38,286 bases of DNA from Planctomycetota bacterium (lineage in GTDB: Bacteria > Planctomycetota > UBA11346), in the NCBI GenBank assembly GCA_038213805.1, contig JBBQSO010000050.1, positions 1 through 38,286 of the forward strand, in the 5' to 3' direction. Shown piece after piece: positions 7,791 to 28,962 of the stretch; the stretch's first letter is position 1; each line of letters begins with the position of its first letter. The notes below the pieces were generated by a model. The model was not told where the DNA came from. It made no database searches and saw nothing but the letters and a program-made list of their open reading frames with translations. The translations under genes and the position numbers were made by a program.

Positions 7791-8645
7791 GTGGCTCTGA
7801 ACCGCGCAAGTTTCGCCGACATCATCGAGCGCATCCATACCGTGCCGTCGCTGCCCGAGGTGGTCACCCAGGTGTGCCGCCTGGTCAACGACCCCAACGC
7901 CGACATGCGCGCGATCAACGCGATCATCATGAAGGACCCGGCCATGGCGGCGAAGATGCTGCGCATGGTCAACAGCGTCTACTACGGTCTGAGCGAGAAT
8001 GTCACCAGCCTTGAGCAGGCGATCCGGCTGCTCGGTTTCAAGACCATCCGCTCGATCGCGCTGTCGATCTCGGTGCTCAACATGTTCCAGCAGCAGAGCG
8101 CCAACTTCAACATGAAGGCCTTCTGGGCGCACAGCGCGGTCTCGGCCTGCCTGTGCCGGCTGATCGCCGCCAAGGGCGCGCTCTGTGATCCCGAGATGGC
8201 GTTTTCGATCGGCCTGCTCAAGGACATCGGCAAGCTCATCCTGGTCGAGAACGCCCCGGAGGAGACGCGCGCGATCATCGCGGTCGCGCGCGAGTACCGC
8301 TTCGGCTTCTCGCGCGCCGCGCGCGAGGTGCTCGACACCGACGACGCCGAGATCGGCGCGTGGCTGGCCAAGAGCTGGGAGCTTGAGCCGATCATGGTGA
8401 ACGCCATCGCCCAGCAGAACCAGATGGCCGGCGCCAGCGACCCCAAGATCGTGGCCATGCTCCAGCTCTGCGAGTATTTGTGCGCGCTCAAGAAGATCCG
8501 CACCTCCGGCCAGTGCGACGAGCCGGTACTCGACCCGGCGGTGTGGAACTACCTGGGGATGGACAAGACCGCGCTGGTCGAGGTGCTGGCGGTGATCAAT
8601 GATGAAGTTGAAAACGCGCGGCAGCTGCTGCTGATCGCCGCGTAG
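7791..8645 (+). CDS. HDOD domain protein
   Basis: PSLPEVV, DPAMAAKMLRMVNSVYYG, AIRLLGF, FWAHS, GLLKDIGK and IGAWLAKSW motifs. Confidence 0.92.
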   Translation: MALNRASFADIIERIHTVPSLPEVVTQVCRLVNDPNADMRAINAIIMKDPAMAAKMLRMVNSVYYGLSENVTSLEQAIRLLGFKTIRSIALSISVLNMFQQQSANFNMKAFWAHSAVSACLCRLIAAKGALCDPEMAFSIGLLKDIGKLILVENAPEETRAIIAVAREYRFGFSRAAREVLDTDDAEIGAWLAKSWELEPIMVNAIAQQNQMAGASDPKIVAMLQLCEYLCALKKIRTSGQCDEPVLDPAVWNYLGMDKTALVEVLAVINDEVENARQLLLIAA

Positions 8646-10263: not shown

Positions 10264-11739
10264 CTACTTCTCCAGCTCGTCCACCTGCCAACCGCCACCG
10301 AGCGCCTTCGCCAAGGCCACCAGGTCATCCGCCACCGCGAGCCGGCTGAGCTGGTGATCGTCCTGGACGGTGAACAGCGCGAGCTCTTCGCGCAGCACGG
10401 CCTGGTAGTCGTCGACGCCGCCGGACTGACGCTCCTTGGCCAGGGCCAGGGCGTTCTGGTGGGCGGCGACGGCGAGGGCGAAGGCGCGCTCGCGTTCGCG
10501 CTCGCGCAGCAGCGCGACCAGCGCGTTTTCGGTGTCGGCGAAGGCGCCGAGCACAGTTTGCCGGTAGCGCAGCAGGGCCTGCTCCTCACGCGCGTCGGCG
10601 GCGTGGATGTTGGCGGCGATGCGCCCCGAGGCGAGGATCGGCCAACGCACGGTCGGGCCGATCGACCAGATGCCATTGGGGGAGGTGAAGAGGCCGGAGG
10701 TGCTCAGCCCCTCGAAGCCGAAGGAGCCGGTCAGCGAGAAGCGTGGGTAGAGGTCGGCGGTGGCGACGCCGACGCGCGCGGTCGCGCTGGCGAGTTCACG
10801 CTCGGCGCGCTGGATGTCGGGGCGGCGGCGCAGCAGTTCCGACGGCAGGCCGGGACGCAGCAGCTCGACCGGGTCGGGCACCGCCACCGCGCTGAACAGC
10901 GGCGCGCTGTCGAGCCCGGCCACCACGACCTGCCGGCCACCGGCGTCGAGCTCGTGCAGGTCGGGCGGCGGCTCGCCGAGCAGCAGCGCGAGGCGGTTGG
11001 CCGCCTGCGCCCGGGCGGAGGCCAGGGCCGGCAGCAGCGTGCGGTTGGTGGCGAGCTGGGCATCGGCCTGGGCGAGGGCGCCGGCCGCGGCCAGCCCGCC
11101 GCTGACGCGCGCCGCGACCAGGTCGCGGCTGTCCTGCTCGCTGGCCAGCGCGCGCCGGGCGATGGCCAGACGCTCCTGCGCGCTCGCCAGCGCCAGCCAC
11201 GCGCGTACCACCTCGGCGATGACGCTGATCTGCACGTCGTGGCGGCTGGCCACGGCCGCGCCGAGATCGGCCTGGGCGGCCTCGACGGCGCGCCTGGTGC
11301 CGCCGAACAGGTCGAGCTCCCAGGTCGCGTCGAAGCCCGCCTGGTAGAGCGTGGTGGTCGCCGGCACCGGTCCACCCGGGGCGAAGAACAGGGTGCGCTG
11401 GCGGGTGACCGCGCCGCTGGCGTCGACCGCCGGGCCCTGCGCGGCGGTCGCCACGCCGAGGTTGGCGCGTACCTCGCGCAGGCGCGCGACGGCGATGCGC
11501 GCGTCGTAGTTGCCGAGCAGCGCCCGCGCCACCAGGCGGTCGAGGGCGGGCTCGTGGAAGGCCGTCCACCAGCTTTCGGGAGCGGTGTTCCGGCTGGTCT
11601 CATCGCTGCGCGTCCGCCAGTCGGCCGGCACCGCGGTCAGCGGTGGCTGATAGTCGCGGCCGACCGAGGCGCAGCCGGCGACCAGCGCGACGGCGAACGG
11701 GGCGGCGAGGACGGCGACCAGCGCGGCGCCGCGTTTCAC
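10264..11739 (-). CDS. Efflux outer-membrane lipoprotein (NodT/OprM/TolC family)
   Basis: Lipobox VAGC; WELDLFG, LPSELLRRRPDI and ALGGGW motifs. Confidence 0.95.
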   Translation of the reverse strand: MKRGAALVAVLAAPFAVALVAGCASVGRDYQPPLTAVPADWRTRSDETSRNTAPESWWTAFHEPALDRLVARALLGNYDARIAVARLREVRANLGVATAAQGPAVDASGAVTRQRTLFFAPGGPVPATTTLYQAGFDATWELDLFGGTRRAVEAAQADLGAAVASRHDVQISVIAEVVRAWLALASAQERLAIARRALASEQDSRDLVAARVSGGLAAAGALAQADAQLATNRTLLPALASARAQAANRLALLLGEPPPDLHELDAGGRQVVVAGLDSAPLFSAVAVPDPVELLRPGLPSELLRRRPDIQRAERELASATARVGVATADLYPRFSLTGSFGFEGLSTSGLFTSPNGIWSIGPTVRWPILASGRIAANIHAADAREEQALLRYRQTVLGAFADTENALVALLRERERERAFALAVAAHQNALALAKERQSGGVDDYQAVLREELALFTVQDDHQLSRLAVADDLVALAKALGGGWQVDELEK

Positions 11740-12713
11740 GGCGCCACCGGTCTGGCGGCCGGCGCCATCACCGCGGCCGGCACCGGCGCGGCGCTGATGA
11801 ACACTTCCATCTGCTGGCCGACGTAGACCGCCAGCTCCTTGTGCTCGAAGGCGTAGATGACCTGCAGGACGCGCGTGTCGACGCGCTCGGTGCTGTCGCC
11901 GGTCAGCGAGCGCTTGGGCACCACGTAGGGTTCGAAGCGCACGAATTTCAGCGCCGTCTTGAGGGCGTTGTTACCGCGCACCACGGCCTCGGCCGGCGCG
12001 TCCCTGGCCACCCGCCAGGCGTCGTTCTCGTCGATGTCGACGCGCACGTGCAGGGTGGTGGTGGCGCCGAGCGTCACCAGCGGGGTGGCCAGCACGCCGG
12101 TGGGCGCCGACTCGCCGGGGCGGACCTTCACCTGCAGCACGGTGCCGTCGACCGGGGCGCGCACGGTCAGGCGTTCGAGCTCGATGCCGGTCGCGGTACG
12201 CTGGGCCTCGGCCTGGGCGAGCTGGGCCTCGGCCTCGGCGCGGCGCGCGGCGGCGATGCGTACCGCGTTGCGGTAGTGCTCGAGCTCGTCGACGCTGATC
12301 GCGCGCTTGTCGGCGAGCGCGTCCCAGCGCGCGAGCTGCTGCTGGACGTCGGCGAGGGTGGCGTCGGCGGTGGCCAGGCCGGCCTTGGCGGCGCGCGCGG
12401 CCGCGTCCTGCACGGCGAGCAGCGCGCGCTGGCTGCGTGGGTCGATCTGGAAGAGCGGGTCGCCGGCCTTGACCTCGGCGCCGATGGCCGCCTGCACGAT
12501 GGTGACGATGCCGGGCAGCGCGGTGCCGATGGCGATGGCCTCGGTGCTGGGCTCGACGATGCCGGCGCCGGCGACGAAGGTCGTCGCAGCGGCGGTGGCG
12601 GGCTCGGCCACCGGCGCCGCGATCGGCACCGGCCGGCTGCCGCGCACCACCGTCCAGCCGGCGAAGGCGACGCCGAGCAGTGCGATCACGGGCAGCAGAT
12701 AGGTGCGGATCAT
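11736..12713 (-). CDS. Periplasmic adaptor (HlyD/MFP) of an ABC efflux system
   Basis: N-terminal TM, lipoyl-like halves (VKAGDPLF; VRAPVDGTV), coiled coil, ERVDTRVLQV. Confidence 0.93.
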   Translation of the reverse strand: MIRTYLLPVIALLGVAFAGWTVVRGSRPVPIAAPVAEPATAAATTFVAGAGIVEPSTEAIAIGTALPGIVTIVQAAIGAEVKAGDPLFQIDPRSQRALLAVQDAAARAAKAGLATADATLADVQQQLARWDALADKRAISVDELEHYRNAVRIAAARRAEAEAQLAQAEAQRTATGIELERLTVRAPVDGTVLQVKVRPGESAPTGVLATPLVTLGATTTLHVRVDIDENDAWRVARDAPAEAVVRGNNALKTALKFVRFEPYVVPKRSLTGDSTERVDTRVLQVIYAFEHKELAVYVGQQMEVFISAAPVPAAVMAPAARPVAP

Positions 12714-13432
12714 GGTGGGCTCCCGGTTGCGGCGGTCGCTGCGCGGCCCGCCTCGATGCGGACGATGCGGCCGTCGTCCATGGTCGCGATGCGGTCGGCG
12801 AAGGGGAAGATGCGCGCGTCGTGGGTGACGATCACCAGGGCGCGCTCGGGGCCGAGCGCGACCTCGCGCAGCAGCTCCATGATGCGCGTACCGCTCTCGT
12901 GGTCGAGCGCGCTGGTAGGCTCGTCGCAGACGATCAGGCGCGGTTCGTGGACCAGCGCGCGCGCGATGGCGACGCGCTGCTGCTGGCCGCCGGAGAGCTG
13001 CGCTGGCAGCGCGGCGGCGCGCCCGGCCAGGCCGACGCGTTCAAGCAGGGTCGCGGCGCGCGCCAGGGCCTCGCGGCGGGGACGGCCGAGGATGAGCAGT
13101 GGAATGGCGATGTTCTCCAGCGCGGTCAGCGCCGGGATCAGGTTGAAGGCCTGGAAGACGAAACCGATGGTGCGCCCGCGGAAGGCGGTCTTGCCCGCCA
13201 CCCCCATCGCCTTGAGATCCTGGCCGAAGACCACGCAGGCGCCCTCGTCCTGGTCGAGGATGCCGGACGCCACCGAGATCAGCGTGGTCTTGCCACAGCC
13301 GGACGGGCCGACCAGCATGAGCAGCTCGCCGCTGGCGACCTCGAGGTCGATGCCGCGCAGCGCGGTGACGACGTTGGCGCCTGCGCCGAAGCGCTTGGTG
13401 ACGCCGGTGAGGGTGATCGCGGTGGCGCTCAT
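12710..13432 (-). CDS. ABC transporter ATP-binding protein (MacB/DevA-like)
   Basis: GPSGCGKTT, LSGGQQQRVAIARAL and CDEPT; the ATG overlaps the upstream TGA. Confidence 0.95.
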   Translation of the reverse strand: MSATAITLTGVTKRFGAGANVVTALRGIDLEVASGELLMLVGPSGCGKTTLISVASGILDQDEGACVVFGQDLKAMGVAGKTAFRGRTIGFVFQAFNLIPALTALENIAIPLLILGRPRREALARAATLLERVGLAGRAAALPAQLSGGQQQRVAIARALVHEPRLIVCDEPTSALDHESGTRIMELLREVALGPERALVIVTHDARIFPFADRIATMDDGRIVRIEAGRAATAATGSPP

Positions 13433-14598
13433 GAGCGGAACACCACCGCCGGTTCGAGGCGCATGACCTTGCGGATGCTCAGCACCGCGGCGAGCGCGCA
13501 GATGAACAGCACCACCGCGGCGGAGTTGGCCAGCCGCGCCCACGACAGGATGAAGGCGAGCTCGGAGCCGCCGACGGCCAGGCCGAAGGCCGCCGCCACG
13601 CCGACGCCCAGGCCGTAGCCGATGCCGCCCACCATCAGCGCCTGGAGCAGGATCATGCGCAGCAGCAGGCCGTTGCCCGCGCCCATCGCCTTGAGCGCGC
13701 CGAAGTGGCGCAGGTTGTCGAGCGTGAAGTTGTAAAAGGTCTGCCCCGCGATCACCGTGCCGACCAGGAAGCCGAGGAACATCGAGATCTGGAAGTTGAT
13801 CGGGATGCCGGTGTTCTCCATGATGAAATTGAGGGTCAGCTTCTTGAAACCGGCCGCGGTCAGGGCCTTCATGCCGGTGGTGGCCGTGATGCGCGCACAC
13901 AGCGCCGCCTGGTCTTCGCCCATGCGCGCCTTGACCAGCACGTAGGTGAGCAGCTTGCGTCGCGGCGGCGCCCAGGTCTTCGCGCGGCTGTAGGTGGTGT
14001 AGACGAACGGGTTCCACATGAAGCTGCGGTTGGTGCGCGCGATGCCCACCACCACCGTGCGGTGGTCGTTGAGTTCGAGCACGTCACCGATCTTGAGCGG
14101 TGCGCGCTCGCCGCCCTTGACCGCGGGCGGGTGCGCGAGCTTGCCCTTGCGGCCGCGCGCGTCGCGCTCGTCGACGATGATGCCGTCGGCGCGGCGCAGG
14201 TCGGCAAGCGACCCCTCGACCATCTCGGGCGGGCCGCCCATCAGGGTGGTGTCGTCGAGGCCCATGACGATGCAGTTCTGGGTGCTGCCGTCTTCCAGGC
14301 GGGCCTCGATGAAGCCGCGGAACAGCGGCAGCGCCCAGCCCACTCCACTCACCGAGCGCACGCGCTCGAGTACGGTGTCCTGCATCGGCTTGATGTCGTC
14401 GATGTTGTCGACGGTCGGTTCCATCACCCAGATGTCGGCCTGGCCGAGGTCGCCGATCGAGGCATAGCTGCGCGCGAGCAGGCCGTCGTAGATCGACGAC
14501 TGCTGGGTGATGAGCAGCGAGGCGAAGGTCACGCCGATGAGGATGCCGATGTATTTGGCGCGGTCGCCGGTGAGCATCTTGAGCGCAATGCGGTTCAT
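13429..14598 (-). CDS. ABC transporter permease (MacB/FtsX/DevC-like)
   Basis: One TM, periplasmic domain, then three TMs; FGALKAMGA and C-terminal EPAVVF. Confidence 0.93.
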   Translation of the reverse strand: MNRIALKMLTGDRAKYIGILIGVTFASLLITQQSSIYDGLLARSYASIGDLGQADIWVMEPTVDNIDDIKPMQDTVLERVRSVSGVGWALPLFRGFIEARLEDGSTQNCIVMGLDDTTLMGGPPEMVEGSLADLRRADGIIVDERDARGRKGKLAHPPAVKGGERAPLKIGDVLELNDHRTVVVGIARTNRSFMWNPFVYTTYSRAKTWAPPRRKLLTYVLVKARMGEDQAALCARITATTGMKALTAAGFKKLTLNFIMENTGIPINFQISMFLGFLVGTVIAGQTFYNFTLDNLRHFGALKAMGAGNGLLLRMILLQALMVGGIGYGLGVGVAAAFGLAVGGSELAFILSWARLANSAAVVLFICALAAVLSIRKVMRLEPAVVFRS

Positions 14599-15254
14599 GC
14601 GCGCTGCCCTCGGCGCGCGCGCGGCGCGGGAAGCGCCGCCGCGATGCCCGCCATGCTGAAGGCGGTGATGTGCGCGGTCAGCGCGGCGAGCTCGGCAGCG
14701 TCCGGGCGCCAGTCCGGGAACAGCCGGCCGATGATCGGCCGGGCGTGGTGGTAGAACAGGCACTGCGCGACCACGCTCGAACTGAGGCGGCGCAGGGCGC
14801 GCGGCTCGCTGGGCGCGCCAAGGTCGCGCAGGATGCCGGTCAGCAGCTCGAACTGCGGGCGGATGGCGCGCTCGACCAGCTGGTCGAGCGCAGCGCTGGG
14901 TTCGATCATCTCGCGCGCCATCAGCCGGCCGTGCCACGCCGGACGGCCCTCGTCGAGCAGGCGCAGCAGGAACTCGCGCACGTACGCCTCAAGGCGCTGC
15001 GCCGGTGGCTGGCGCGCGTCAGCGGGCGGCGGATGCGCGTGCAGCGCGCAGGCGTGGGCGTAGGCGAAGACTGCGACGTAGAGCCCGCGCTTGTCGCCGA
15101 AGTGGTAGTTGACCGCGGCGATGTTGGCGGCGGCCCGCGCGCAGATGTCGCGCACCCGCGCCGCGCGGAAGCCGACCTCGGCGAAGACCTCGCCCGCCGC
15201 CTCGAGCAGGCGTTGGCGGGTGTCGACGACGGGTTCGGGGGCGGGCTTGCGCAT
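14595..15254 (-). CDS. TetR-family regulator (CecR/DUF1956-type C-terminus)
   Basis: TRQRLLEAAGEVFAEVGF...ANIAAVNYHFGDKRGLY HTH; C-terminal HITAFSMAGI. Confidence 0.93.
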   Translation of the reverse strand: MRKPAPEPVVDTRQRLLEAAGEVFAEVGFRAARVRDICARAAANIAAVNYHFGDKRGLYVAVFAYAHACALHAHPPPADARQPPAQRLEAYVREFLLRLLDEGRPAWHGRLMAREMIEPSAALDQLVERAIRPQFELLTGILRDLGAPSEPRALRRLSSSVVAQCLFYHHARPIIGRLFPDWRPDAAELAALTAHITAFSMAGIAAALPAPRARRGQRA

Positions 15255-15257
15255 GCG

Positions 15258-15287
15258 TGAAACGCAGGTTTCAAAAAACGATTTGAA
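15258..15287. promoter_or_regulatory. Overlapping palindromes, probable TetR operator
   Basis: TGAAAC-GCAG-GTTTCA (15258-15273) and TTCAAA-N6-TTTGAA (15270-15287), next to a minus-strand TTGACT (15292-15287). Confidence 0.6.
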
Positions 15288-15651
15288 GTCAATGCCTATG
15301 TGTGCCGAAGTTAGGCCGAGCGCGGTTGGGCGCCAGAGACGAGACCCGAAGCACCGAGACGTGGGGATGGCTGCGTGGAGGAGACGAGGGGTCTGAAAAG
15401 CCCAGTGGTGAGCAGCGTAGAAGCGCCAGAACCCCGAGTCCCCCAGGGTCGGTCCTGGTTTCAGCACGCAGCCGTGCTCGCCTTGCGGGTGAGCACGGCC
15501 AAGCGCCGAAGTCCTTGGCGTCGTGGCGTCTTGGCGGTCCTAACCGCTTGGTCTGCGGTTTTCAGATCTCAGGCCCCGCCTCTCGAGACGCGCGCCTGGC
15601 GCCTCACCCGGGTCTCCCTGGCCCCGCCCCCATCCCGCGCTACCCTTCCGT

Positions 15652-16365
15652 ATGCGCCTGCTGCTCGTCGAGGATGAGGCCAGCATCCGGTCCGCGATGG
15701 TGCGCGGGCTGACCCTGCAGGGCCACACCGTGGTCGCGGCGGGCAGCCTGGTCGAGGCGCGCGCGCTGGTCGCGGCGCAGCGCCCGGAGGCCCTGGTCAG
15801 CGATCTCAAGCTGCCTGATGGCAATGGCCTGGACCTGGCTGAGGAGTTCCAGCTGCCGGCCGTGATGATGACCGGCTACGGGACTTTTGACGATGCGGTG
15901 CGGGCGATGCGCATGGGCGCTGTCGACTTCTTCACCAAGCCCGTGCCGATCAAGGACATCGCCAAGGCCCTGGAGCGCATCGCGGCGCGCCTGGGGGGCG
16001 GGCCGACGGTGCTCGACCCGGGGCCGCAGCCACGCCTGGTGCAGCATGGCGCGACCGGGTTGCAGGCCCGCGAGGTGCGCAGCGAGGCGGTGGCCTGGAC
16101 CACCCCGGCGGCCGCCGCGGCGGCCTTTTCCGGGCTCGCGGCGGTGCTGCCGGGGGTGGTCCACCGCCAAGTCGCGGCCGAGCTGATGCAGTCCGCCCCG
16201 GCCGGCCGGCTGGTCGTGAACCTGCTGCCAGACGCCTGGTCGGCATGGCTCGAAGCCGGGGTTGAATGGCTCGCCCAGCCCGCCCGCCGCCAGCTGCTCG
16301 AAGAGCTCTGCCGCAGCTGCGCGTGGCGGCCGGATGGCGCTCTGGTGGAGTGCCGGCATGGCTGA
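15652..16365 (+). CDS. Response regulator: receiver domain plus degenerate anti-sigma (HATPase_c_2-like) C-terminal domain
   Basis: LLVEDE, SDLKLPDG, MTGY and FTKP show an intact receiver. The C-terminal AAELMQSA and LLEELC...W...DG resemble an RsbW-type fold without ATP boxes (inference). Confidence 0.85.
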   Translation: MRLLLVEDEASIRSAMVRGLTLQGHTVVAAGSLVEARALVAAQRPEALVSDLKLPDGNGLDLAEEFQLPAVMMTGYGTFDDAVRAMRMGAVDFFTKPVPIKDIAKALERIAARLGGGPTVLDPGPQPRLVQHGATGLQAREVRSEAVAWTTPAAAAAAFSGLAAVLPGVVHRQVAAELMQSAPAGRLVVNLLPDAWSAWLEAGVEWLAQPARRQLLEELCRSCAWRPDGALVECRHG

Positions 16366-16687
16366 GGCCCCGGAGAAACCAGCGGCGGTGACGGTGGTGC
16401 GCTGGACGGGCGAGCTGCTCTGGCCGCAGCCCCTGCCAGAGGCGGCGGTGATCGACCTGGCCCGGGTGACGGCCCTGGGCACCTGGGCCTACGCGTGGTT
16501 CGCGGCACGGCCGCAGCAGGCGGCGACCGGGGCGACTCCGGCGCTAAAGCGCCAGCTGCAGCGCGCCGGGGTCGCGCTGCTGTGGTGTGACCACCCCCAC
16601 GGCCAGGCCGGGGTGAGCGCGGCCGAGCGCGCCCTGCTGTGGGGTGACGACAGCGCCCCAGGCGCGCCGCTGCCCGGTCTGGGGTAG
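16358..16687 (+). CDS. Small STAS-like (anti-anti-sigma-like) protein
   Basis: VVRWTGEL...VIDLARVTALGT...GATPALKRQLQRAGV follows the STAS pattern; overlaps the previous stop. Confidence 0.6.
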   Translation: MAEAPEKPAAVTVVRWTGELLWPQPLPEAAVIDLARVTALGTWAYAWFAARPQQAATGATPALKRQLQRAGVALLWCDHPHGQAGVSAAERALLWGDDSAPGAPLPGLG

Positions 16688-16745
16688 ACTCCTACCGCCT
16701 CGCGCCGCTGGGCGACCGGGGCCGGCCGGCAGGGGGCTGGGCATT

Positions 16746-16762
16746 TGGGCGAGCCGTTTGCG
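16746..16762 (+). promoter_or_regulatory. Possible sigma54-like element
   Basis: TGGGCGAGCCGTTTGCG (GG-N10-GC), ~70 bp upstream of the ATG at 16835. Confidence 0.3.
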
Positions 16763-16834
16763 TTGTCCCCCGTCGGCTGAAGGCCCGTGTCGAGGAATCC
16801 ACCTCGCCGGCCGCGCCCCGGGCACCGCTCCGCC

Positions 16835-18730
16835 ATGGCCGAGGATCCCCCTTCGCAGGACGACATCGACGCCATCATCGCCCAGGTCGCGGGCGGTGCC
16901 GCGCCGACGCCCCCGGCGCCCTCCGGGCCGCTGGGCCAGAGCGACATCGACGCCCTGCTCAATGAGGTCCAATCCGCGGTCGCCGGCGCCCCGCCCGTCC
17001 GGGCCATCCCCGCCGCTGCGCCGGTCCCCGCCGACTTCACGGCACCCGCCGTCTTGAGCCAGGGCGACATCGACGCGCTCATCGACGAGGCCAAGGGCAC
17101 GCCACCCGCCGCCGCGGTTCCTGCTCCCGCCACGGCTCCAGCCAGCTCGACGACCACCGCCCGCGCCGCCCAGGACGACATCGACGCGATCCTCAACGAG
17201 GTGCAGTCGGTGATGGGCGGGGCGCCCCCGGCCAGCCCCTCGAAGGCCAAGCCCGCGCTCGGCGCCACCATGCCGGCGGCCGACTCCACCGCGGGCATGG
17301 CGCAGACCGACATCGACCAGCTGCTCGCCGAACTCGGCGCCGGCGCGCCCAGCCCCCGCCCGTCGACCGCGACCGCGACGGTGGCGATGAGCGATCCGCT
17401 CGCCGCGACCGTGATCGCGCCCTCGCAGGGGACCACCATCGAGGCGCCGCTCAACATCCCGGGCGGCGCGCAGCCGACCCTGGCACTGAGCAGCGAGGAC
17501 CTCGACGCGCTGATGGACAAGCAGTCGGCGACCGCCAGCGACCACAGCGAAGCGCCGATGATCGATCAGGGCGACATCGACGCCCTGGTCAAGCAGCTCG
17601 CCAACGCCACCGGCGCGCCCGACACCCAGCGCATCTCCGCCGCGCTCGCCCAGCACGAGGGCGAGATCGGCAAGCTGCTCGACAACGGCAACCCCAACGC
17701 CACCACCGCGGACGCGGTCGACATCGGCAAGCTCACGCAGCGCATGTCGCCGGGCGCCTCCGGCATGGTGATGTCGCACTTCGGCCCGGGCGTGCCGGTG
17801 CTCGCCCCGCGCGAGCTCAAGGGCGCACGTTGGCTGCTCGCCGCCGGCGTGCTGCTGCTCGGCGTGTGTTCGACCACCCTGATCGGGGTGGTGCGGGCGA
17901 TCGACAAGCTGGCGCAGGAGCTGCACAGCAACCGTCCCCTCGAGGTGGCGCCGACCGACAGCTATGCCGACGATCTCAAGACCGCGCTCGCCATGCTCGC
18001 CTCCACCGACGAGGTCGAGGCGGCCAAGGGCGTGGTCTTCGTCGGCCGGCTCAAGCAGCGTCAGCCGGTGCACGAGGCCGAACTCGCGCTGATCCTGGCG
18101 CGCCACCACCGCGCCCACGGCCAGCACCGCAACGCGGCCCAGGAGTTCGCGGTGGTGCTCGACGGCGCGGGCACGCTCGACGATCCGCGCGTCCACCTCG
18201 AGTTCGCCGACAGCCTCAGCCAGCTCAAGGATTACGCCGGGGCGACCCGCCAGGTCTACATCGTGCTCGCCAACGAGGCTGCCTACGTCGCTGAGCAGGA
18301 TCGCCATGGTCTGGCGCGGCCCGCCGACGAACTGGCGCGCAACCGCCAGGCAGTGCAGGACGCCTATCTCGACCTCGGCCGCCTGATGACCTCGTCCTGG
18401 GAACAGAGCCGCGACACGCGCCTGGCCAAGCGTGAGCCGCGCGAGGAACACGGCAACGAGGCCGGGCACGCAGGGCACGCCGCGCCGGCCGGTGAGGGCG
18501 GTCACGCCACCGCCGCGCCGCACGAGGCCCAGGACGCTGCTGCGCATGGCGCCGCCGCCGGCCCGCGCGAGGAAGCCCCCGCCCACGCCGCATCTGCCGG
18601 CGCGGCTGAGGAGCATGCGCCTGGCGGCGGCGCGGCGGGTGCCGCACCGCCGCTCGCGCACGACGCCGCCCAGCCCGCACCGCAGGCCACCGGCCACGCG
18701 GCACCCGCCGCGACGCACGAGGGCCACTAG
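16835..18730 (+). CDS. Bitopic membrane protein with seven FliM-N/CheZ-C-like peptides, TPR-like domain and His/Ala-rich tail
   Basis: Repeats SQDDIDAII, GQSDIDALL, SQGDIDALI, AQDDIDAIL, AQTDIDQLL, SSEDLDALM and DQGDIDALV; TM WLLAAGVLLLGVCSTTLIGVV. Confidence 0.85.
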   Translation: MAEDPPSQDDIDAIIAQVAGGAAPTPPAPSGPLGQSDIDALLNEVQSAVAGAPPVRAIPAAAPVPADFTAPAVLSQGDIDALIDEAKGTPPAAAVPAPATAPASSTTTARAAQDDIDAILNEVQSVMGGAPPASPSKAKPALGATMPAADSTAGMAQTDIDQLLAELGAGAPSPRPSTATATVAMSDPLAATVIAPSQGTTIEAPLNIPGGAQPTLALSSEDLDALMDKQSATASDHSEAPMIDQGDIDALVKQLANATGAPDTQRISAALAQHEGEIGKLLDNGNPNATTADAVDIGKLTQRMSPGASGMVMSHFGPGVPVLAPRELKGARWLLAAGVLLLGVCSTTLIGVVRAIDKLAQELHSNRPLEVAPTDSYADDLKTALAMLASTDEVEAAKGVVFVGRLKQRQPVHEAELALILARHHRAHGQHRNAAQEFAVVLDGAGTLDDPRVHLEFADSLSQLKDYAGATRQVYIVLANEAAYVAEQDRHGLARPADELARNRQAVQDAYLDLGRLMTSSWEQSRDTRLAKREPREEHGNEAGHAGHAAPAGEGGHATAAPHEAQDAAAHGAAAGPREEAPAHAASAGAAEEHAPGGGAAGAAPPLAHDAAQPAPQATGHAAPAATHEGH

Positions 18731-20740
18731 ATGAACGCCCCCCGCCATCCGGGCGCCACCGCGCTGCTGCTGCTGCTCGCCGCCCCCGCCCTGCTGTCCG
18801 CCGCCGAGGTGGGGCCGCCCGTGCCGCTGCCGACCCTGCCGCCAGAAGAGCGCAGCATGCTGTTCGCACCGCCGGCGCAGCCCAAGCGTCCCACGGCGGC
18901 CGCCGTTCCCGACCAGCAGCAGGCGCTGATCGACGACATCAAGGCGCTCAAGGCGGCGGTCGGACGCGTGCGCGCGGTGCTGCCCAGGGACGTGGTCGCC
19001 GAGGCCGACGCCGCGACCACCCGCCAGGAGGCCGGCGCCGAGGGCGCCGGCGGCGGCGCGCGCACCCCCGACGGCCCGCCGCGCGAAGCGACCCGCCTGG
19101 GCACCGACCAGCTCGTCGTCCAGCGCTACAGCGATGGCAGCGCCGAGATCACCGCCACCATCGACCGCCAACCGCTCGACCTGATCATCAAGGAGCTGGC
19201 CCAGCTGCTCGGGCGCAGCGTCGACGACGCGCAGGCCACCGGTATGACGCGGCGCGTGTCGCTGAGCGTCAGCAAGCTCGCCACCGAGGACGCGCTCGAC
19301 CGCCTGCTCGGCGCGGCGGGGCTGGCATGGCGCGAAGAGGGGCCGGCGCGCACCCTGGTGCTCATCGACCCCGGCCAGCATCCGCTCAGCACCGAGCAGC
19401 TTGAACATCTCGCCGACCGCGCCCTCAACCGCGCCGCGCGCGAGCGTGGATCGCCCCAGGCCGCGCAGGCGCTCTTTCTGATCGCGCGGCGGCACGCCGT
19501 GGCCAAGCGCCAGGTCGAGGCCATGGGCCTGTACAGCACGATCGTCGAACAGTACGGCTCCAATCGCGATCCCGCGATCCGCCCGTGGGTGGCGCGCGCG
19601 GTGCGCGGCATCGGCGACGCGATGGTCCAGCTCGGCCAGTTCCGCGACGCGCGCGACGTCTACCTGAACTACATCAGCCGCGCCGGCGAGCAGGACGCCG
19701 AGCTGCCCGCGGTCTACCTCGCCGCTGCCGAGGCCGGGCGCCGCGCCGGGCTCGCCAAGAACGATCCGGTGGCCTTCGACGAGTCCGCCGACCTGCTGCA
19801 CAGCCTGCTCGAACGTTACGCCGAGTCGTCGCCCGCCGCCGCGCAGGTGCACGAGGCGCGCCTCGCCCTGGGCGAGTTGCTGGTCGACGCCGGGCGCTGG
19901 CAGGAGGCCGAGATCCAGCTCAAGCTGGTCGCCGCCGACGCCGGTGGCGCGGTCGGCGACCAGGTGGTGTTCTGGCTGGCCGAGTGCGCCTACCGCCTCG
20001 ACCATCCCAAGGAGGCCCAGCCCGGTTTCGCCAAGCTCTATGTGGCCTGGAAGGCCGGCCACACCGACCCGCAGGTCAAGGCCGCCGACTACGCCACCGC
20101 CGGCTTCCGCATCGGCCAGTGCTGGCTGATGGGCAAGGACCCGCAGTATGTGCGCGCGCTGTTCGCGCTGCTGCGCGCGCGCCAGGATTTTCCCAAGTCG
20201 CCGCTCGAGAGCGAGGTGCTGATCGCCATCGCACGCTGCTACGCCGAACTGCAGCGTGACGACGACACGGTCGCGGCGCTCGCCGACCTGCTGAAGAGCG
20301 AGGGCATCGCCGATCCCGCCAAGCGGCAGCTGTGGCTCGACCAGTCGCTTGAGGACCTTGGCAGCCACCTCGGCGAGTACAGCGGCCCGGTGCGCGCGAA
20401 GGTGCTGTTCTACATGGGCCAGGCGGACTACCGCCGCGCCCAGCGCGACCGCGCCCAACGCGAGACCGCGGCCAACGACGCGGTGCACCACTACGAACAA
20501 GCGCTGGCCGAGGGGCCGCCCAACGACCTCGCGCACGCCGCCCAGCTCGGCCTGGCGCGCGCCGCCCTGCTTGGTGGCCAGGAGGAGAGCGCGCTCAAGT
20601 CGCTCAAGGGCCTGCTGCGCGATCCCACCCTGGCGCCGCGCGACCGCGAATTCGCCGCTCAGTTGCTCGGCAACCACCTGCGCGACCAGGGTCGCTTCCG
20701 CGAGGCCATCCAGGCCTTCCGCGGGGAGGTGGCGGAGTGA
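18731..20740 (+). CDS. Exported TPR protein with an N-terminal STN/secretin-N-like domain
   Basis: Signal peptide; QPLDLIIKELAQLLG...VSLSV...EDALDRLLGAAGLAW; then many TPR-like helices. Confidence 0.8.
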   Translation: MNAPRHPGATALLLLLAAPALLSAAEVGPPVPLPTLPPEERSMLFAPPAQPKRPTAAAVPDQQQALIDDIKALKAAVGRVRAVLPRDVVAEADAATTRQEAGAEGAGGGARTPDGPPREATRLGTDQLVVQRYSDGSAEITATIDRQPLDLIIKELAQLLGRSVDDAQATGMTRRVSLSVSKLATEDALDRLLGAAGLAWREEGPARTLVLIDPGQHPLSTEQLEHLADRALNRAARERGSPQAAQALFLIARRHAVAKRQVEAMGLYSTIVEQYGSNRDPAIRPWVARAVRGIGDAMVQLGQFRDARDVYLNYISRAGEQDAELPAVYLAAAEAGRRAGLAKNDPVAFDESADLLHSLLERYAESSPAAAQVHEARLALGELLVDAGRWQEAEIQLKLVAADAGGAVGDQVVFWLAECAYRLDHPKEAQPGFAKLYVAWKAGHTDPQVKAADYATAGFRIGQCWLMGKDPQYVRALFALLRARQDFPKSPLESEVLIAIARCYAELQRDDDTVAALADLLKSEGIADPAKRQLWLDQSLEDLGSHLGEYSGPVRAKVLFYMGQADYRRAQRDRAQRETAANDAVHHYEQALAEGPPNDLAHAAQLGLARAALLGGQEESALKSLKGLLRDPTLAPRDREFAAQLLGNHLRDQGRFREAIQAFRGEVAE

Positions 20741-21513
20741 TGCGGCGTCCTGGCGGTTCGATCTTCAGCCGTTCCGCGTTGGTGGCCTGCGCGCTGCTGG
20801 TCTGCGGCATCGCGCGCAGCGAAGAGGATCCCGCACTGCCCGGGCTGGCGCCGTTGCCGCGGCTGGTGCCGCTGACCCCGGTGGCGGGGCTGCCGGAGCG
20901 CGACGATGCCGATGAGCGGCTGCTGCGGCGCATCGCCCAGCAGGCGCGCGAGCGCGAGCAGCGCATCGCCGAGCTGCTCGACGCGCACGGCGGGTCGCGC
21001 CCACCGCTCGCCGACACCTCTGCGCCCGAACTGGTCCGGCCGCGCAAGGACCGCGACCAGGCGTGGGCCGCACTGCAGGCCGCGCTGTTGAAGGCGCCCG
21101 AGCGCGCCCGCGCCCAGGGCGACCCGCTCGACGCCGGCACCGCGGTCAACCAGGCCCGCCAGGAACCGCTGATCTCCGCCGCCAACCAGCTGCACATTGC
21201 CGAGTGCTACCGCGACCTGGCGTCCGCACCGATGCCAGACGGCAAGGAGCTCGATACCGGGCTCGACGTGCTGGCAAAGCTCGACCCCGGTCTGCTCGCC
21301 GAGGCCGAGCGCCCGCGCTACCACTACCTGCACACCTGGTTCCTCGCCGAACAGGCGCGCCACGCCAGCGGCCCGGAACGCGCGCGCCTGCTGCTTGAGG
21401 CGCAGGCCGCGGCGCGCGAGCTGCAGGCGCGGCCCGACAGCGAGCTTGCTGCCGCCGCGCAGGCGCTGTTCATCGGCCTGACGCCATCGCCCGCCGAAGG
21501 AAGCGCCCCATGA
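20737..21513 (+). CDS. Exported helical hypothetical protein
   Basis: Signal-peptide-like N-terminus; 4-bp overlaps with both neighbours. Confidence 0.75.
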   Translation: MMRRPGGSIFSRSALVACALLVCGIARSEEDPALPGLAPLPRLVPLTPVAGLPERDDADERLLRRIAQQAREREQRIAELLDAHGGSRPPLADTSAPELVRPRKDRDQAWAALQAALLKAPERARAQGDPLDAGTAVNQARQEPLISAANQLHIAECYRDLASAPMPDGKELDTGLDVLAKLDPGLLAEAERPRYHYLHTWFLAEQARHASGPERARLLLEAQAAARELQARPDSELAAAAQALFIGLTPSPAEGSAP

Positions 21514-24844: not shown

Positions 24845-25017
24845 GGTGCTCAGAGTGCGACAGCATTCGTACGCATGATGTACCAGCCCTGCCGCATCGG
24901 CAGATTGTACAACTCCAGGCCGCGCCGCCCGTACAACCAGCTCACCCTGCAGTGGTAGCGCTTTCACGCGAGGCCCACCCCGCCTCCGGCGCTCCCAGCT
25001 CTCAATTGGATACCCCT

Positions 25018-28000
25018 ATGCCCGTCCGCGCGCTCCTCGCCGTCTTCGCACTTCTGATCTGCTCGGCCGCGCTGCACGGTGCGGATACCGTGCTCGCGCT
25101 GCGCAAGGGCGACCGCATCGCGATCATCGGCAGCGCGGTCGCCGACCGCATGCAGCACGACGCCTGGTTCGAATCCCTGATCTACCGCGCGTACCCCGAT
25201 CTCGACCTCACGGTGCGCACCCTCGCCGCGCCCTGTGACGAGGTGGTGACGCGTCTGCGCACCGAGACCGGCGCGACGCGCGACGCCTGGCTGGCCCGGC
25301 TGGACTGCACCGTGGTGCTGGCCTTCTATGGCTTCAACGAATCGTTCGCCGGCCCCGCCGGCCTGCCGCAATTCACCCAGGACCTGCACGGCTTCATCGC
25401 CGCCATCCGCGCCGCACACGGCAGCACCGGGCAGGCCCCGCGCCTGGTGCTGATCTCGCCGACGGCCGCAGAGGACCTCCACGATGCCAATCTCGCTGCG
25501 CCAGGACCGCTCAACGCCAATCTCGCGGCCTATGCGGCCGCGATGGCCGCGGTGGCGAAGGCCGACGCGGTGCCGTTCGTCGATCTGTTCGCGACCTCGC
25601 AGCAGCTCTATGGCGCGGCCGCGCACCCGTTGACCTTCAACGGCATCCACCTCACCGAGACCGGCGATGAGGTGTTCGCCCCGCCGCTCTTCCAGGCGGT
25701 CTTCGGCGTCCCGCCGCCGCTGCCGAGCGCGGCGCTTGAGACCCTGCGCGCCGCGGTGGTCGACAAGAACGAGACCTGGTTCCACCGTTACCGCACGGTC
25801 GACAGCTACAACATCTACGGCGACCGTTCGCGCATCGGCTACGAATCCGGCCCGGGCGGGCCCAAGCTCACCAACGCCCAGGTGATGGAGCCGGAGATGG
25901 CGGTCCGCGATGCGCTGACCGTGAAACGCGATCGGCGCATCTGGGCGGTCGCGCAGGGCGGCGACCTTGCCCTTGACGAGGCCGGCCTGCCGGAGGTCCC
26001 CGTGGTGAAGACCAACCTGCCCGGCTCCGGTCCGGACGGGACCCATCCTTACCTTGGTGCCGAGGCGGCGATCGCGCACATGACGCTCGCCAAGGGCTGC
26101 AAAGCCAACCTGTTCGCCAGCGAAGAACAGTTCCCCGAACTGGTGAAGCCCGTGCAGATGGCCTGGGACACGCGCGGCCGGCTGTGGGTGTCGGTGTGGC
26201 CGAACTACCCCGAACGCACGCCGACCAGCACCGTCGGCGACAGGATCCTCATTCTTGAGGACACCGACGGCGACGGCAAGGCGGACAAGATGACGACCTT
26301 CATCGACGGCCTGAACTGCCCGACCGGCTTCCAGTTCTACAAGGACGGCATCCTGCTCATGCAGTCGCCCGACCTGTGGTTCGTGCGCGACACCGACGGT
26401 GACGGCAAGGCGGACTGGAAGGAGCGCGTGCTGATGGGGCTCGACGCCGCCGACTCGCACCACGAGACCAACTCCATGGTCGTCGACCAGGGCGGCGCGA
26501 TGTACCTCAGCGACGGCTGGTTCATGCGCACCCAGATCGAGACCGCGCAGGGACCGGTGCGCAACGTCGACGCCGCGATCTACCGCTACGAACCGCTCAG
26601 CCAGAGGTTCGAGCGCTACGTGCCCTACGACTTCGCGAATCCGCACGGGCGCGTGTTCGACGGTTGGGGCACCGACATCATCACCGACGGCACCGGCAAC
26701 GAGAACTTCTTCGCGCCAGCCTTCAGCGGGCACATCGACTACCCGGGCCGCCACCCGCGCATGCAGCAGTTCTGGAACCGCCCGTCGCGGCCCTGCGCGG
26801 GAACTTGCATCCTCTCCAGCCGGCACTTCCCGGAGGAGTTCCAGGGCAACTTCCTTGACTGCAACGTCATCGGCATGCAGGGGGTGTTCCGCGCGCGCGT
26901 CCGCGAGGAGGGCTCCGGACTCGCCGGCGACACGCTCGAGAACCTGGTCAGCTCCGACGACCGCACCTTCCGCCCCAGCGGCGTGAACGTCGGGCCCGAC
27001 GGCGCGGTCTACGTCATGGACTGGTCGAACGCCATCGTCGGCCACCTGCAGCACCACCTGCGCGATCCCAACCGCGACCACGTGCATGGCCGCATCTACC
27101 GCATCACGTACGAAGGTCGGCCGCTGCTGGCGCCGGCGCGCATCGCCGATCAGCCGGTGGCCGCGCTCCTCGAGCTGCTCACAGAGCCCGAGGACAACGT
27201 GCGCGCCCGCGCCCAGCTCGAACTCGGCAAGCGCGACCCCGCCACCGTCCTTGCCGCGGTCGACGCGTGGGCGGCGAAGCTTGATCCCGCCGCTGCGGGT
27301 TTCGCGCGCAACCAGCTGTACGCGCTGTGGACGCATCAGTGGTTCAACGCCGTCGACCTGCCGCTGCTGCGCCGGCTGCTGCGCGCGCCGGACCACCACG
27401 TGCGGGCGGCGGCGACGCGGGTGCTCTGCTATTGGCGCGACCGCGTGCCCGAGGTCGTCGCGCTGCTGCGCGTCCAGGCCGAGGACGAGCATCCGCGCGT
27501 GCGGCTGGAGGCGGTGCGCGCCTGCAGCTTCCTGCGCCAATGGGAAGCCGGCGACGTCGCCCTGCTCGCCCTGAAGCGGCCGCACGACTATTACGTCGAC
27601 TACTGCTTGAAGGAGACCATGCGGCAGCTCGAGCCGTGGGTGCGGCCAGCGTTGACTGCGGGCAGCGCGATCGCGGCGGGCAACCCCGAAGGCATGGCCT
27701 ACCTGCTTGCCGGCGTCGGCACGGGCGAGCTCGCCACCTTGCCGCCCGGGCCGGCGGTGTGGCAGGCGCTGGTCACGCGCGCCGACACGCCCCCGCCCGC
27801 GCGCCTGGACGCGCTGCGCGCCTGGGCCGCGCAGCGCGGCGCCACTCCGCTCGCCACCCTGCTGGAGGTGATGCAGGGGATCACCGCCACGGATGCGGCC
27901 GCGCTCGCAACGGCCTCTGCCACCCTGCTGAGCCTGCCCGCGGCCGAACTCGCGGTCGGCCGGAACGCACTGACCACGCTGCGCACCCCGGACCGGCCCG

Positions 28001-28962
28001 AGCCGCTGCGCCGCGCGGCGATCGCCGCGCTGATGACCATCGACGGCAGCGTTGACCGGCAGTGGGAACTGGCCGGACGGGATCCCGCCGCCATCGGCGA
28101 TGCGCTTGGCGCGGTGACCATGATCGCGGCTACGCCGGTGCGCGCCTCCGCCGCGCCGCACGTGCTCGAGCTCCTCGGTGCCCAGCTCGCGCAGCGCACG
28201 CCGGCCGTCCCGCCGGATCAGGTCGGCCGCCTGCGCCGCGCGGCACTCGACGCCGCGCCCGCCTGCGCACTCGACCCCGCGCAGCTGGCGGCTGCGCTCG
28301 CGGCGCTGTTGGCCGCCAACGAGGAGGTGCCCAGCGCGGTGCGCTGCGCGCGGCACGTTCCGCTCCCGGCGTGGACGCCGGCGCTCGCCGCGACCGCGGT
28401 CGATGGCATCGCCCGCTGGGTGCGCGGCCAGGCGGTCGCCCAGCGCGGCCGCACGGAGGTCGTCGACGCCCTCGCCTGCGCGCGCGAACTCACCGGCCGC
28501 CTGGGCGAGACGGAAGCGCGCGCCGCCCGCGCTGCGCTCAAGGAGCTCGGCGTCGAGATCATCATCCTGACCACCGTCCGCGAGCAGATGCGCTATGACC
28601 GGGCCCACGTCGTGGTCGAGGCCGGCAAGCCGTTCCAGCTGATCCTGCGCAACGCCGATTCGATGCCGCACAACCTGGTGGTGGTCACGCCGGGCAACCG
28701 CGCGCGCATCGGTCAGCTCGCGGCGGGCCTGGCAGCGACCGTGGATGGCGAAGGCCGGGCCTTCGTCCCGCAGGACCCGGCCGTGCTCGCCGCCACCAGA
28801 CTGGTGGAACCGGGTCAGGAGCGCGTGCTGCGCATGACGGCGCCGACGGCGCCCGGCGAGTACGAGTACCTGTGCACCTTCCCGGGCCACTACCTGATCA
28901 TGTGGGGGACGCTCACCGTGACCGGCGATGTCGAGGGGTACCTGCGCGATCATCCGCCCTGA
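25018..28962 (+). CDS. PVC-type multidomain protein: SGNH-like + beta-propeller dehydrogenase-like + HEAT repeats + azurin-like cupredoxin
   Basis: Signal peptide; YGFNES and NGIH; two DTDGDGKAD; GPDGAVYVMDW and HGRIYRI; HEAT (HPRVRLEAVRA); type-1 Cu ligands MPHN and CTFPGHYLIM. Confidence 0.9.
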   Translation: MPVRALLAVFALLICSAALHGADTVLALRKGDRIAIIGSAVADRMQHDAWFESLIYRAYPDLDLTVRTLAAPCDEVVTRLRTETGATRDAWLARLDCTVVLAFYGFNESFAGPAGLPQFTQDLHGFIAAIRAAHGSTGQAPRLVLISPTAAEDLHDANLAAPGPLNANLAAYAAAMAAVAKADAVPFVDLFATSQQLYGAAAHPLTFNGIHLTETGDEVFAPPLFQAVFGVPPPLPSAALETLRAAVVDKNETWFHRYRTVDSYNIYGDRSRIGYESGPGGPKLTNAQVMEPEMAVRDALTVKRDRRIWAVAQGGDLALDEAGLPEVPVVKTNLPGSGPDGTHPYLGAEAAIAHMTLAKGCKANLFASEEQFPELVKPVQMAWDTRGRLWVSVWPNYPERTPTSTVGDRILILEDTDGDGKADKMTTFIDGLNCPTGFQFYKDGILLMQSPDLWFVRDTDGDGKADWKERVLMGLDAADSHHETNSMVVDQGGAMYLSDGWFMRTQIETAQGPVRNVDAAIYRYEPLSQRFERYVPYDFANPHGRVFDGWGTDIITDGTGNENFFAPAFSGHIDYPGRHPRMQQFWNRPSRPCAGTCILSSRHFPEEFQGNFLDCNVIGMQGVFRARVREEGSGLAGDTLENLVSSDDRTFRPSGVNVGPDGAVYVMDWSNAIVGHLQHHLRDPNRDHVHGRIYRITYEGRPLLAPARIADQPVAALLELLTEPEDNVRARAQLELGKRDPATVLAAVDAWAAKLDPAAAGFARNQLYALWTHQWFNAVDLPLLRRLLRAPDHHVRAAATRVLCYWRDRVPEVVALLRVQAEDEHPRVRLEAVRACSFLRQWEAGDVALLALKRPHDYYVDYCLKETMRQLEPWVRPALTAGSAIAAGNPEGMAYLLAGVGTGELATLPPGPAVWQALVTRADTPPPARLDALRAWAAQRGATPLATLLEVMQGITATDAAALATASATLLSLPAAELAVGRNALTTLRTPDRPEPLRRAAIAALMTIDGSVDRQWELAGRDPAAIGDALGAVTMIAATPVRASAAPHVLELLGAQLAQRTPAVPPDQVGRLRRAALDAAPACALDPAQLAAALAALLAANEEVPSAVRCARHVPLPAWTPALAATAVDGIARWVRGQAVAQRGRTEVVDALACARELTGRLGETEARAARAALKELGVEIIILTTVREQMRYDRAHVVVEAGKPFQLILRNADSMPHNLVVVTPGNRARIGQLAAGLAATVDGEGRAFVPQDPAVLAATRLVEPGQERVLRMTAPTAPGEYEYLCTFPGHYLIMWGTLTVTGDVEGYLRDHPP

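Follow-up and report, generated by a model that had tools for sequence, protein, structure and literature searches.

Positions 16835–18730 (plus strand) of the window, by which we mean the whole 38,286-nt stretch of the planctomycete contig JBBQSO010000050.1 analysed here, encode a protein of 631 residues, designated P0001, that carries seven copies of a short amphipathic motif ahead of a single transmembrane (TM) helix. We propose that P0001 is a membrane-tethered, multivalent dock for receiver domains of the CheY family, secured to the envelope by a periplasmic TPR complex and forming part of the flagellar system, a reading to which we assign a probability of roughly 0.55. In broader terms, the probable role of the array protein is to collect a signalling protein at the cell envelope, and our comparisons suggest that arrays of this kind are present in many phyla, with FliM, FliN, FliY, CheZ and FliL themselves among their carriers.

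Translation of the array gene (coding part 16835–18727) agreed with the original prediction, which had described seven motif copies, starting at 16853, 16934, 17057, 17168, 17300, 17489 and 17564, separated by disordered Ala/Pro linkers and followed by one TM helix. The open reading frame (ORF) could begin at an ATG (16835) or at a GTG (16787), and we favoured the former because the first motif of relatives sits 5–13 residues from the start. The seven copies begin at precisely the positions listed, all on the plus strand: motif 1, SQDDIDAIIA (16853–16882, helix 8–20 in the model described below); motif 2, GQSDIDALLN (16934–16963, helix 35–50); motif 3, SQGDIDALID (17057–17086, helix 76–86); motif 4, AQDDIDAILN (17168–17197, helix 111–127); motif 5, AQTDIDQLLA (17300–17329, helix 157–169); motif 6, SSEDLDALMD, a variant without the Q whose family form is S.EDLDALV (17489–17518, helix 220–232); and motif 7, DQGDIDALVK, the best-conserved copy (17564–17593, helix 245–258). 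The first 330 residues include 68 Ala and 38 Pro and have a net charge of −25. In an AlphaFold2 model built on 51 relatives, all seven motifs form short helices (block pLDDT about 70–83) joined by linkers with pLDDT <50, that is, short helices within a disordered, accessible segment, as is characteristic of motifs of the EIDAL class.

The motif array exceeds chance, with a strict motif pattern matching six times in the array ORF and once elsewhere among the six-frame ORFs of at least 80 residues in the genome (7,429,741 residues). Alignment of the 51 relatives shows little or no variation at the Q, I and D of the motifs and no conservation of the linkers; in motif 7, residues I243, Q245, I248, A250, L251 and V252 are invariant. 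A search of the array gene for DNA-level tandem repeats found none, and the codons differ among the motif copies, indicating that the repeats are maintained by selection at the peptide level and are not recent duplications.

By four independent lines of sequence evidence, the P0001 motifs belong to the class of docking peptides found at the N-terminus of FliM (FliM-N) and the C-terminus of CheZ, as originally predicted. When a profile of 125 repeat units from the array family, a second planctomycete family (f39) and two other phyla was aligned by hhalign with a profile of 29 planctomycete FliM N-termini, the match had a probability of 96.7% (P 3.8e-10) and was in register, pairing Q with Q, I with V, D with D, A with A and both L with L. 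We also scored 7.18 million windows of the genome with a matrix made from the 8-residue cores of 12 FliM N-termini from other families; five of the P0001 repeats ranked 18 (motif 2), 81, 487, 802 and 1538, the remaining two came in at 17,249 and 40,524. The FliM N-terminus of the genome itself ranked 13,615. A 14-residue FliM-N matrix was insensitive, with only two of the seven repeats scoring more than 12 bits and FliM-N of the genome itself absent from the 40 best windows listed. For reference, a preprint gives the FliM_N sequence of E. coli as M1GDSILSQAEIDALL16 (bioRxiv 10.1101/781468). On the CheZ side, repeats of two members of the array family, P0080 (E 8.9e-7) and P0083 (E 5.9e-5), matched the final ~20 positions of the CheZ model in Pfam. 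Searching the Protein Data Bank with the repeat profile gave no significant match, paxillin LD peptides being the best (E 0.15–0.2) and FliM third (E 0.46).

The same arrays are found on other proteins. Run against 1.84 billion representative proteins, the repeat profile matched 493 clusters with E ≤0.001, of which 171 reached E ≤1e-10; the 150 matches listed had between 2 and 21 matching stretches each. We scanned with Pfam the 132 top matches lying outside our first family search, and 36 contained a Pfam family and 96 none. Thirteen of the 36 carried flagellar or chemotaxis families (FliL in five, the CheZ domain in three, the CheZ C-terminal peptide alone in two, and FliM, FliN and FliY in one each), the two peptide-only matches being members of P0001's own family; the others comprised TPR (8), zinc-ribbon (5) and Ig-like (4) domains and short spurious matches (6). 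Of the 132 proteins, 61 have a TM helix C-terminal to the complete array and 64 have no TM helix.

The homologues of FliM, FliN and FliY have 4–6 copies at the N-terminus (FliM P0190, five; FliN P0156, six by eye and four by regular expression; FliY P0151, five), and the CheZ homologues P0119, P0152 and P0185 have 5–6 tandem copies at the C-terminus (5–7 motifs by regular expression). As read from these sequences, the array occupies the usual site of the single docking peptide, and multi-copy versions of the classical CheY-binding proteins exist. The view that docking proteins carry one copy, from which the original prediction started, therefore stands as the norm but is not without exceptions, given homologues of FliM, FliN, FliY and CheZ with 5–6 copies. 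FliL-type membrane proteins with N-terminal arrays include P0094 (nine copies), P0140, P0179, P0189, P0202 and a protein from a Desulfotignum bin (L035:7860-9614) of 585 residues, with nine motifs, a TM helix and an end that weakly resembles FliL (PF03748, E 0.08). The gene for the latter lies in the order fliR-flhB-flhA-flhF-flhG-fliA-[array]-ORF-DUF6115/DUF2802-fliK, in which the DUF6115/DUF2802 protein is FipA-like. Where source names were available, the array clusters came from Vulcanimicrobiota, Nitrospinota and Desulfobulbaceae, with related loci in Lentisphaerales and Desulfotignum among the matches listed.

Family f39 offers a further arrangement. Its array proteins (L057-L064, L033, L084-L087) have 700–800 residues, 4–12 repeats of the MGQDDIDALL type, a conserved coiled coil and a helical C-terminal domain, with no predicted TM helix and no Pfam family, and their genes lie in housekeeping contexts except for one flgA-flgN cluster ~5 kb away. 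The array is thus a module that can be mounted on different anchors. A second repeat protein, of 972 residues and without a Pfam family, was seen in one genome of P0001's own family (L088:8182-11100, in G049:C31).

Relatives of P0001 itself have a narrower distribution. A search of 5.8 billion proteins returned 76 related clusters, and the four with a source name were labelled Planctomycetes or Planctomycetota. The number of motifs per relative ranges from 1 to 10, some of the shortest being fragments, and they share a core of two membrane-proximal motifs, the TM helix, a TPR domain and a terminus rich in His. Among 401 Planctomycetota genomes sampled, we saw full-length matches exclusively in the genome's own family (f1), where they occurred in 20 of 23 genomes in addition to the genome itself, and eight genomes of f39 matched in the repeat region alone. 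Two related contigs from one assembly (G142:C209 and G142:C238; loci L082 and L100) end inside the repeat region; breaks of this kind in the assembly probably explain some of the homologues that seem absent or truncated in draft bins.

To relate the array to flagella, we compared its presence with that of FliM and FlhA in 48 f1 genomes, which contain the array protein in 39 cases, FliM in 37 and FlhA in 40. The array protein was present in 39 of the 42 genomes with FliM or FlhA, whereas none of the six with neither had it. The three array-negative genomes with FliM or FlhA are 68%, 70% and 72% complete, and the six with neither gene are 61–89% complete and spread over four genera. Ignoring relatedness, the chance that all six would fall among the nine array-negative genomes is 84/12,271,512, or about 7e-6. 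Genera g1 and g5 each hold both carriers and non-carriers that lack FliM and FlhA, giving at least two clean contrasts within a genus. P0001's own genome encodes FliM, FliN, FliL and a che cluster on one contig and FlhA, FlhF and FlhG on another; its fliM, which adjoins fliL, is at G000:C88.

The part of P0001 that follows the array is predicted to anchor it in the envelope. A conserved membrane-proximal helix (residues 264–283; 17624–17683, plus strand), evident in both the alignment and the model, terminates in most relatives with an extra motif of the HEGEIDKLL type that is degenerate in P0001 (EIGKLL). The hydrophobic core of the TM helix (residues 333–353, 17831–17893, plus strand; model helix 326–366) is the sole strongly hydrophobic segment of the protein and ends at 17893, the end coordinate given in the original prediction. 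It is followed by a predicted periplasmic TPR-like helical domain (residues 377–533; 17963–18433, plus strand), modelled with pLDDT >90 as the stacked helix-turn-helix repeats that define the TPR superfamily, for which the top Foldseek matches were all TPR proteins, among them PcrH, IpgC and CHIP (best E 1.1e-3; TM-score to target 0.55–0.70 for the top ten). Pfam TPR models matched few of the 51 relatives (TPR_16, three; TPR_19, one). The protein ends in a His-rich tail (18464–18727, plus strand) that is disordered in the model; 20 His occur among the 275 residues C-terminal of the membrane helix, and the family consensus has AHGxGH at its end. This tail may conceivably bind metal.

The N-terminal tail is most likely cytoplasmic. 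It is long and strongly acidic, and the first 45 residues of 50 out of the 51 relatives contain no hydrophobic segment. Counted over the 15 residues on either side of the TM helix, the net charge is about +1.0 N-terminally and +0.1 C-terminally. The signal-like N-termini of the two proteins encoded downstream fit a periplasmic TPR assembly.

These neighbours belong to a five-gene unit on the plus strand. The first gene (15652–16365; Pfam Response_reg, E 2.8e-18) encodes a response regulator of 237 residues, REC-X, with a receiver domain and an alpha/beta C-terminal domain of ~115 residues, both covered by a model with a mean pLDDT of 91.5 in which the C-terminal domain is confidently built. 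No fold could be named for the latter (residues 119–235), since Foldseek results were dominated by the receiver and a protein atlas search gave no match; the best full-length Foldseek rows, LvrC and RssB, had root-mean-square deviations >15 Å. The acceptor residues E7, D8, D51 and K96 are invariant in 24 orthologues. The REC-X stop is overlapped by a small ORF of 109 residues (16358–16687, starting at ATG 16358 or, alternatively, at ATG 16334), identified from the sequence and with no Pfam or NCBIfam match, which follows REC-X in 28 of 30 loci (L098-L127) and is fused to it in six as one protein of 332–345 residues.

Downstream of the array, an ATG directly after its stop opens the gene for a TPR protein of 669 residues (18731–20740) with a signal-like N-terminus, which matched Pfam TPR families and YbgF/BamD/PorW-like TPR models of NCBIfam and had no match among PDB sequences. 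The stop of this gene is overlapped by 4 nt by the GTG of the last gene (20737–21513), whose product of 258 residues has, by its sequence, a hydrophobic signal-like segment at the N-terminus. The array and TPR genes are adjacent in 17 of 18 related loci by tblastn and in the 18th by a hidden Markov model search, and the 258-residue protein gene follows in 16, the contigs of the other two ending first. Judging from these junctions, the array gene is translationally coupled to two genes for secreted proteins.

The original prediction had named the receiver protein encoded two genes upstream of the array as a possible client, and its gene proves to be a conserved neighbour with the same phyletic pattern as the array protein. 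In 10 of the 18 loci REC-X immediately precedes the array gene, and an 11th is split by a contig end inside the repeats; in seven of the 18 genomes REC-X and its small ORF are on another contig. Strong orthologues are present in 38–39 of the 48 f1 genomes and in none of the six without FliM and FlhA, which gave only generic matches of 30–42% identity.

Taking these observations together, we envisage P0001 as a single-pass inner-membrane protein that would extend an acidic, disordered tail of ~325 residues into the cytoplasm and display on it seven amphipathic helices of the class by which FliM, FliY and CheZ hold phosphorylated CheY. The periplasmic TPR domain and the His-rich tail would probably join the two secreted downstream products, fixing the protein at an envelope site, and the cytoplasmic tail, as a multivalent tether, could then serve to concentrate, buffer or titrate one or more CheY-family receiver proteins within the flagellar motility system. 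Several receiver domains could bind at once because the linkers between motifs, at 25–63 residues, are long enough. A receiver domain is favoured as the ligand because a conserved receiver gene adjoins the array gene, and CheY in particular because arrays occur on CheZ homologues. The likeliest ligand would be a chemotaxis CheY; REC-X might bind as well or instead, perhaps at the invariant motifs close to the membrane.

Several results weigh against this proposal. Neither of the two single-domain CheY proteins of the genome that we compared follows the distribution of the array: the CheY at G000:C119 has orthologues in just 9 of the 48 f1 genomes, on which ground we rejected it as the cognate ligand, and the CheY at C88 has them in 27, including one without FliM and FlhA. 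The N-termini of FliM in f1 read [IL]LS[AEPS][DE]EL[EDSN][AS]L[LI] in all 10 f1 sequences read (drawn from the genome's own fliM on contig C88, L001:1183-2178, minus strand, and from L169-L176, L195 and L196), so that the Q is missing and E-L stands where the array has D-I, whereas Q-x-E-[VI]-[DE]-A-L-L is mostly retained in f39 and in the 12 sequences from other families. FliM and the array may therefore have different ligands in f1, which hints that the two have possibly diverged in partner. P0001 matched no Pfam family, and hence none of PF02154, PF01052, PF04344, PF03748, LysM or FimV, no NCBIfam family beyond a 13-bit hint of SycD TPR, and no PDB sequence; the CheZ model matched just three of the 51 aligned relatives at E up to 0.1, P0001 not among them. 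Counts of K and R flanking the TM helix are about equal and do not settle the topology. Because related genomes are not independent, the phyletic contrast represents fewer events than genomes. Finally, gene order gave no support for the proposed placement at the motor, and several searches speak against a tight flagellar link in f1: none of 14 flagellar and chemotaxis proteins of the genome had a tblastn match in the flanks fetched for the 18 related loci, neither a sigma-28 nor a sigma-54 consensus turned up near the operon (15468–15651 and 16688–16834), and a promoter and terminator scan found none.

The C119 chemotaxis cluster includes an ORF of 100 residues (L009:1842-2144, minus strand), STAS-like by eye, directly upstream of its CheY.

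The most probable alternative is that the tail, chiefly through its invariant membrane-proximal motifs, binds REC-X exclusively, together with its small partner. Together they would form an envelope module under the control of phosphorylation, which disappears along with flagella but has no action on the motor or on chemotaxis CheY. In mechanism this reading overlaps with our preferred explanation; it differs in ligand and output. We consider it a minority possibility, although the adjacency of the two genes, the absence of strong REC-X orthologues from the genomes without FliM and FlhA, the invariant acceptor residues and the conserved, sometimes fused, small ORF all speak for it. It accounts less readily for the seven genomes in which REC-X is on another contig, and an N-terminal copy number that varies from 1 to 10 would be easier to reconcile with a ligand that is general and abundant than with one dedicated partner. 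Moreover, in five of five array-bearing f39 genomes, whose arrays lie on another scaffold, the C-terminal domain of REC-X was not found, and REC-X therefore cannot be the general ligand of such arrays, a result that also bears against our own proposal.

Somewhat less probable still, yet the main rival to docking of a CheY-family receiver, is that the array captures the MinD-like ATPase FlhG at the membrane or pole, as a landmark setting the number and place of flagella, comparable to HubP-FlhG in Vibrio. A review documents that FlhG interacts with FliM/FliN via the FliM N-terminus and that landmark proteins recruit FlhF and FlhG (PMC12826062). FlhG, which in some species docks on the N-terminal peptide of FliM and FliY, is thus a second documented partner, one that the original prediction left aside. 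Co-occurrence with flagellar genes fits FlhG equally well, the genome's FlhF and FlhG genes adjoin FlhA, and the Desulfotignum array gene comes right after flhF-flhG-fliA and two genes before the one for the DUF6115/DUF2802 protein. However, arrays at the C-terminus of the CheZ homologues P0119, P0152 and P0185 point elsewhere, as the known partner of CheZ is CheY and not FlhG, and the conserved neighbour of the array gene encodes a receiver domain rather than FlhG.

That the helices bind an unrelated partner, or merely lend the tail an acidic and extended character, their likeness to FliM-N being convergent, is improbable: the motif is short, paxillin peptides outrank FliM in the non-significant PDB matches, and of the 132 array proteins scanned 96 have no Pfam family and others carry TPR, zinc-ribbon or Ig-like domains with no flagellar link, but the in-register profile match to FliM-N, the identical repeat at the exact docking-peptide site of FliM, FliN, FliY and CheZ, and a presence that tracks flagellar genes all argue otherwise.

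The remainder of the window (G+C 70–76%), which belongs to a genome bin of 5.5 Mb in 180 contigs that is 90% complete, contains other recognizable genes. A MacAB-TolC-type efflux operon (OEP, HlyD, ABC ATPase and FtsX/MacB permease) with a TetR/CecR-type regulator occupies 10264–15467 on the minus strand, divergent from REC-X. An HDOD-domain protein (E 1.7e-58) is encoded at 7791–8645 (plus strand), and a homologue lies near REC-X in two related loci (L068 and L072). At 24952–28962 (plus strand) there is a gene for a protein of 1336 residues with GDSL lipase-like, DUF7133, HEAT and cupredoxin domains.

CheY-P is commonly modelled as freely diffusing and meeting one docking peptide per FliM, FliY or CheZ molecule. 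The docking peptide itself is textbook knowledge, and we found no description, in open-access papers or bioRxiv, of a membrane-anchored array on a TPR anchor or of the breadth of such arrays. We tentatively raise the possibility that tandem CheY-docking-peptide arrays form an unrecognized, widespread signalling module (~500 clusters at 50% identity in at least five phyla, on FliL, FliM, FliN/FliY, CheZ, TPR anchors and coiled coils), and that in f1 an envelope-spanning accessory complex of the motor places as many as ten docking sites on each subunit next to the C-ring, as a local reservoir or sink of CheY-P. If so, such a reservoir would tune the gain, speed or adaptation of motor switching, a layer of control outside current models. 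A membrane protein with seven to ten of these peptides would, at a fixed site in the cell, alter the local concentration and lifetime of CheY-P or FlhG as well as their competition, and the array would offer a simple way to tune switching or flagellar number. For an uncultured planctomycete family, it also provides a first functional handle on the unit formed by REC-X, the small protein, the array and the two secreted proteins.

Among known systems, the closest counterpart of the motif is the N-terminal EIDAL peptide of FliM and FliY, which shares the core Q-x-[DE]-[IV]-D-A-L-L, likewise borne on a short helix in a disordered region. P0001 differs from FliM in displaying seven copies on a membrane anchor instead of one on a C-ring protein and in lacking PF02154 and PF01052, and FliM of planctomycetes reads V-L-S before the Q where the array usually has G or S after P-L or A-x. 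The CheZ C-terminal peptide likewise matches the repeats of P0080 and P0083, and CheZ homologues with tandem copies exist, but P0001 has neither the CheZ phosphatase domain (PF04344) nor a match to the model. In architecture, the FliL-type array proteins, for which we also found no published description in open-access papers or bioRxiv, resemble P0001, with a presumably cytoplasmic array, one TM helix and a periplasmic domain, and one of them is encoded inside a flagellar operon; they are from other phyla, and their periplasmic domain is FliL-like (PF03748) where that of P0001 is TPR. Lineage-specific, TPR-rich flagellar accessory proteins of the periplasm or membrane are known as PflA/PflB in Campylobacter and as collar proteins in spirochaetes, yet P0001 and its TPR partner matched no solved structure by sequence, and the Foldseek hits of the periplasmic domain of P0001 were generic TPR proteins. 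The LD motifs of paxillin, the best though non-significant PDB matches, are also acidic helices of the L-D-x-L-L type spaced by disordered linkers, an analogy alone, as they are eukaryotic and have other partners. In overall design, P0001 may be compared with the polar landmark proteins HubP/FimV. In HubP, a periplasmic LysM domain comes first and the cytoplasmic part lies at the C-terminus, the opposite order to that proposed for P0001. According to the review cited above, proteins of this type are single-pass, have a long, acidic and repetitive cytoplasmic part, and recruit flagellar and chemotaxis regulators (PMC12826062). The first two of these features are what we propose for P0001, and since it lacks LysM and has differing repeats, the resemblance is one of design and not of homology.

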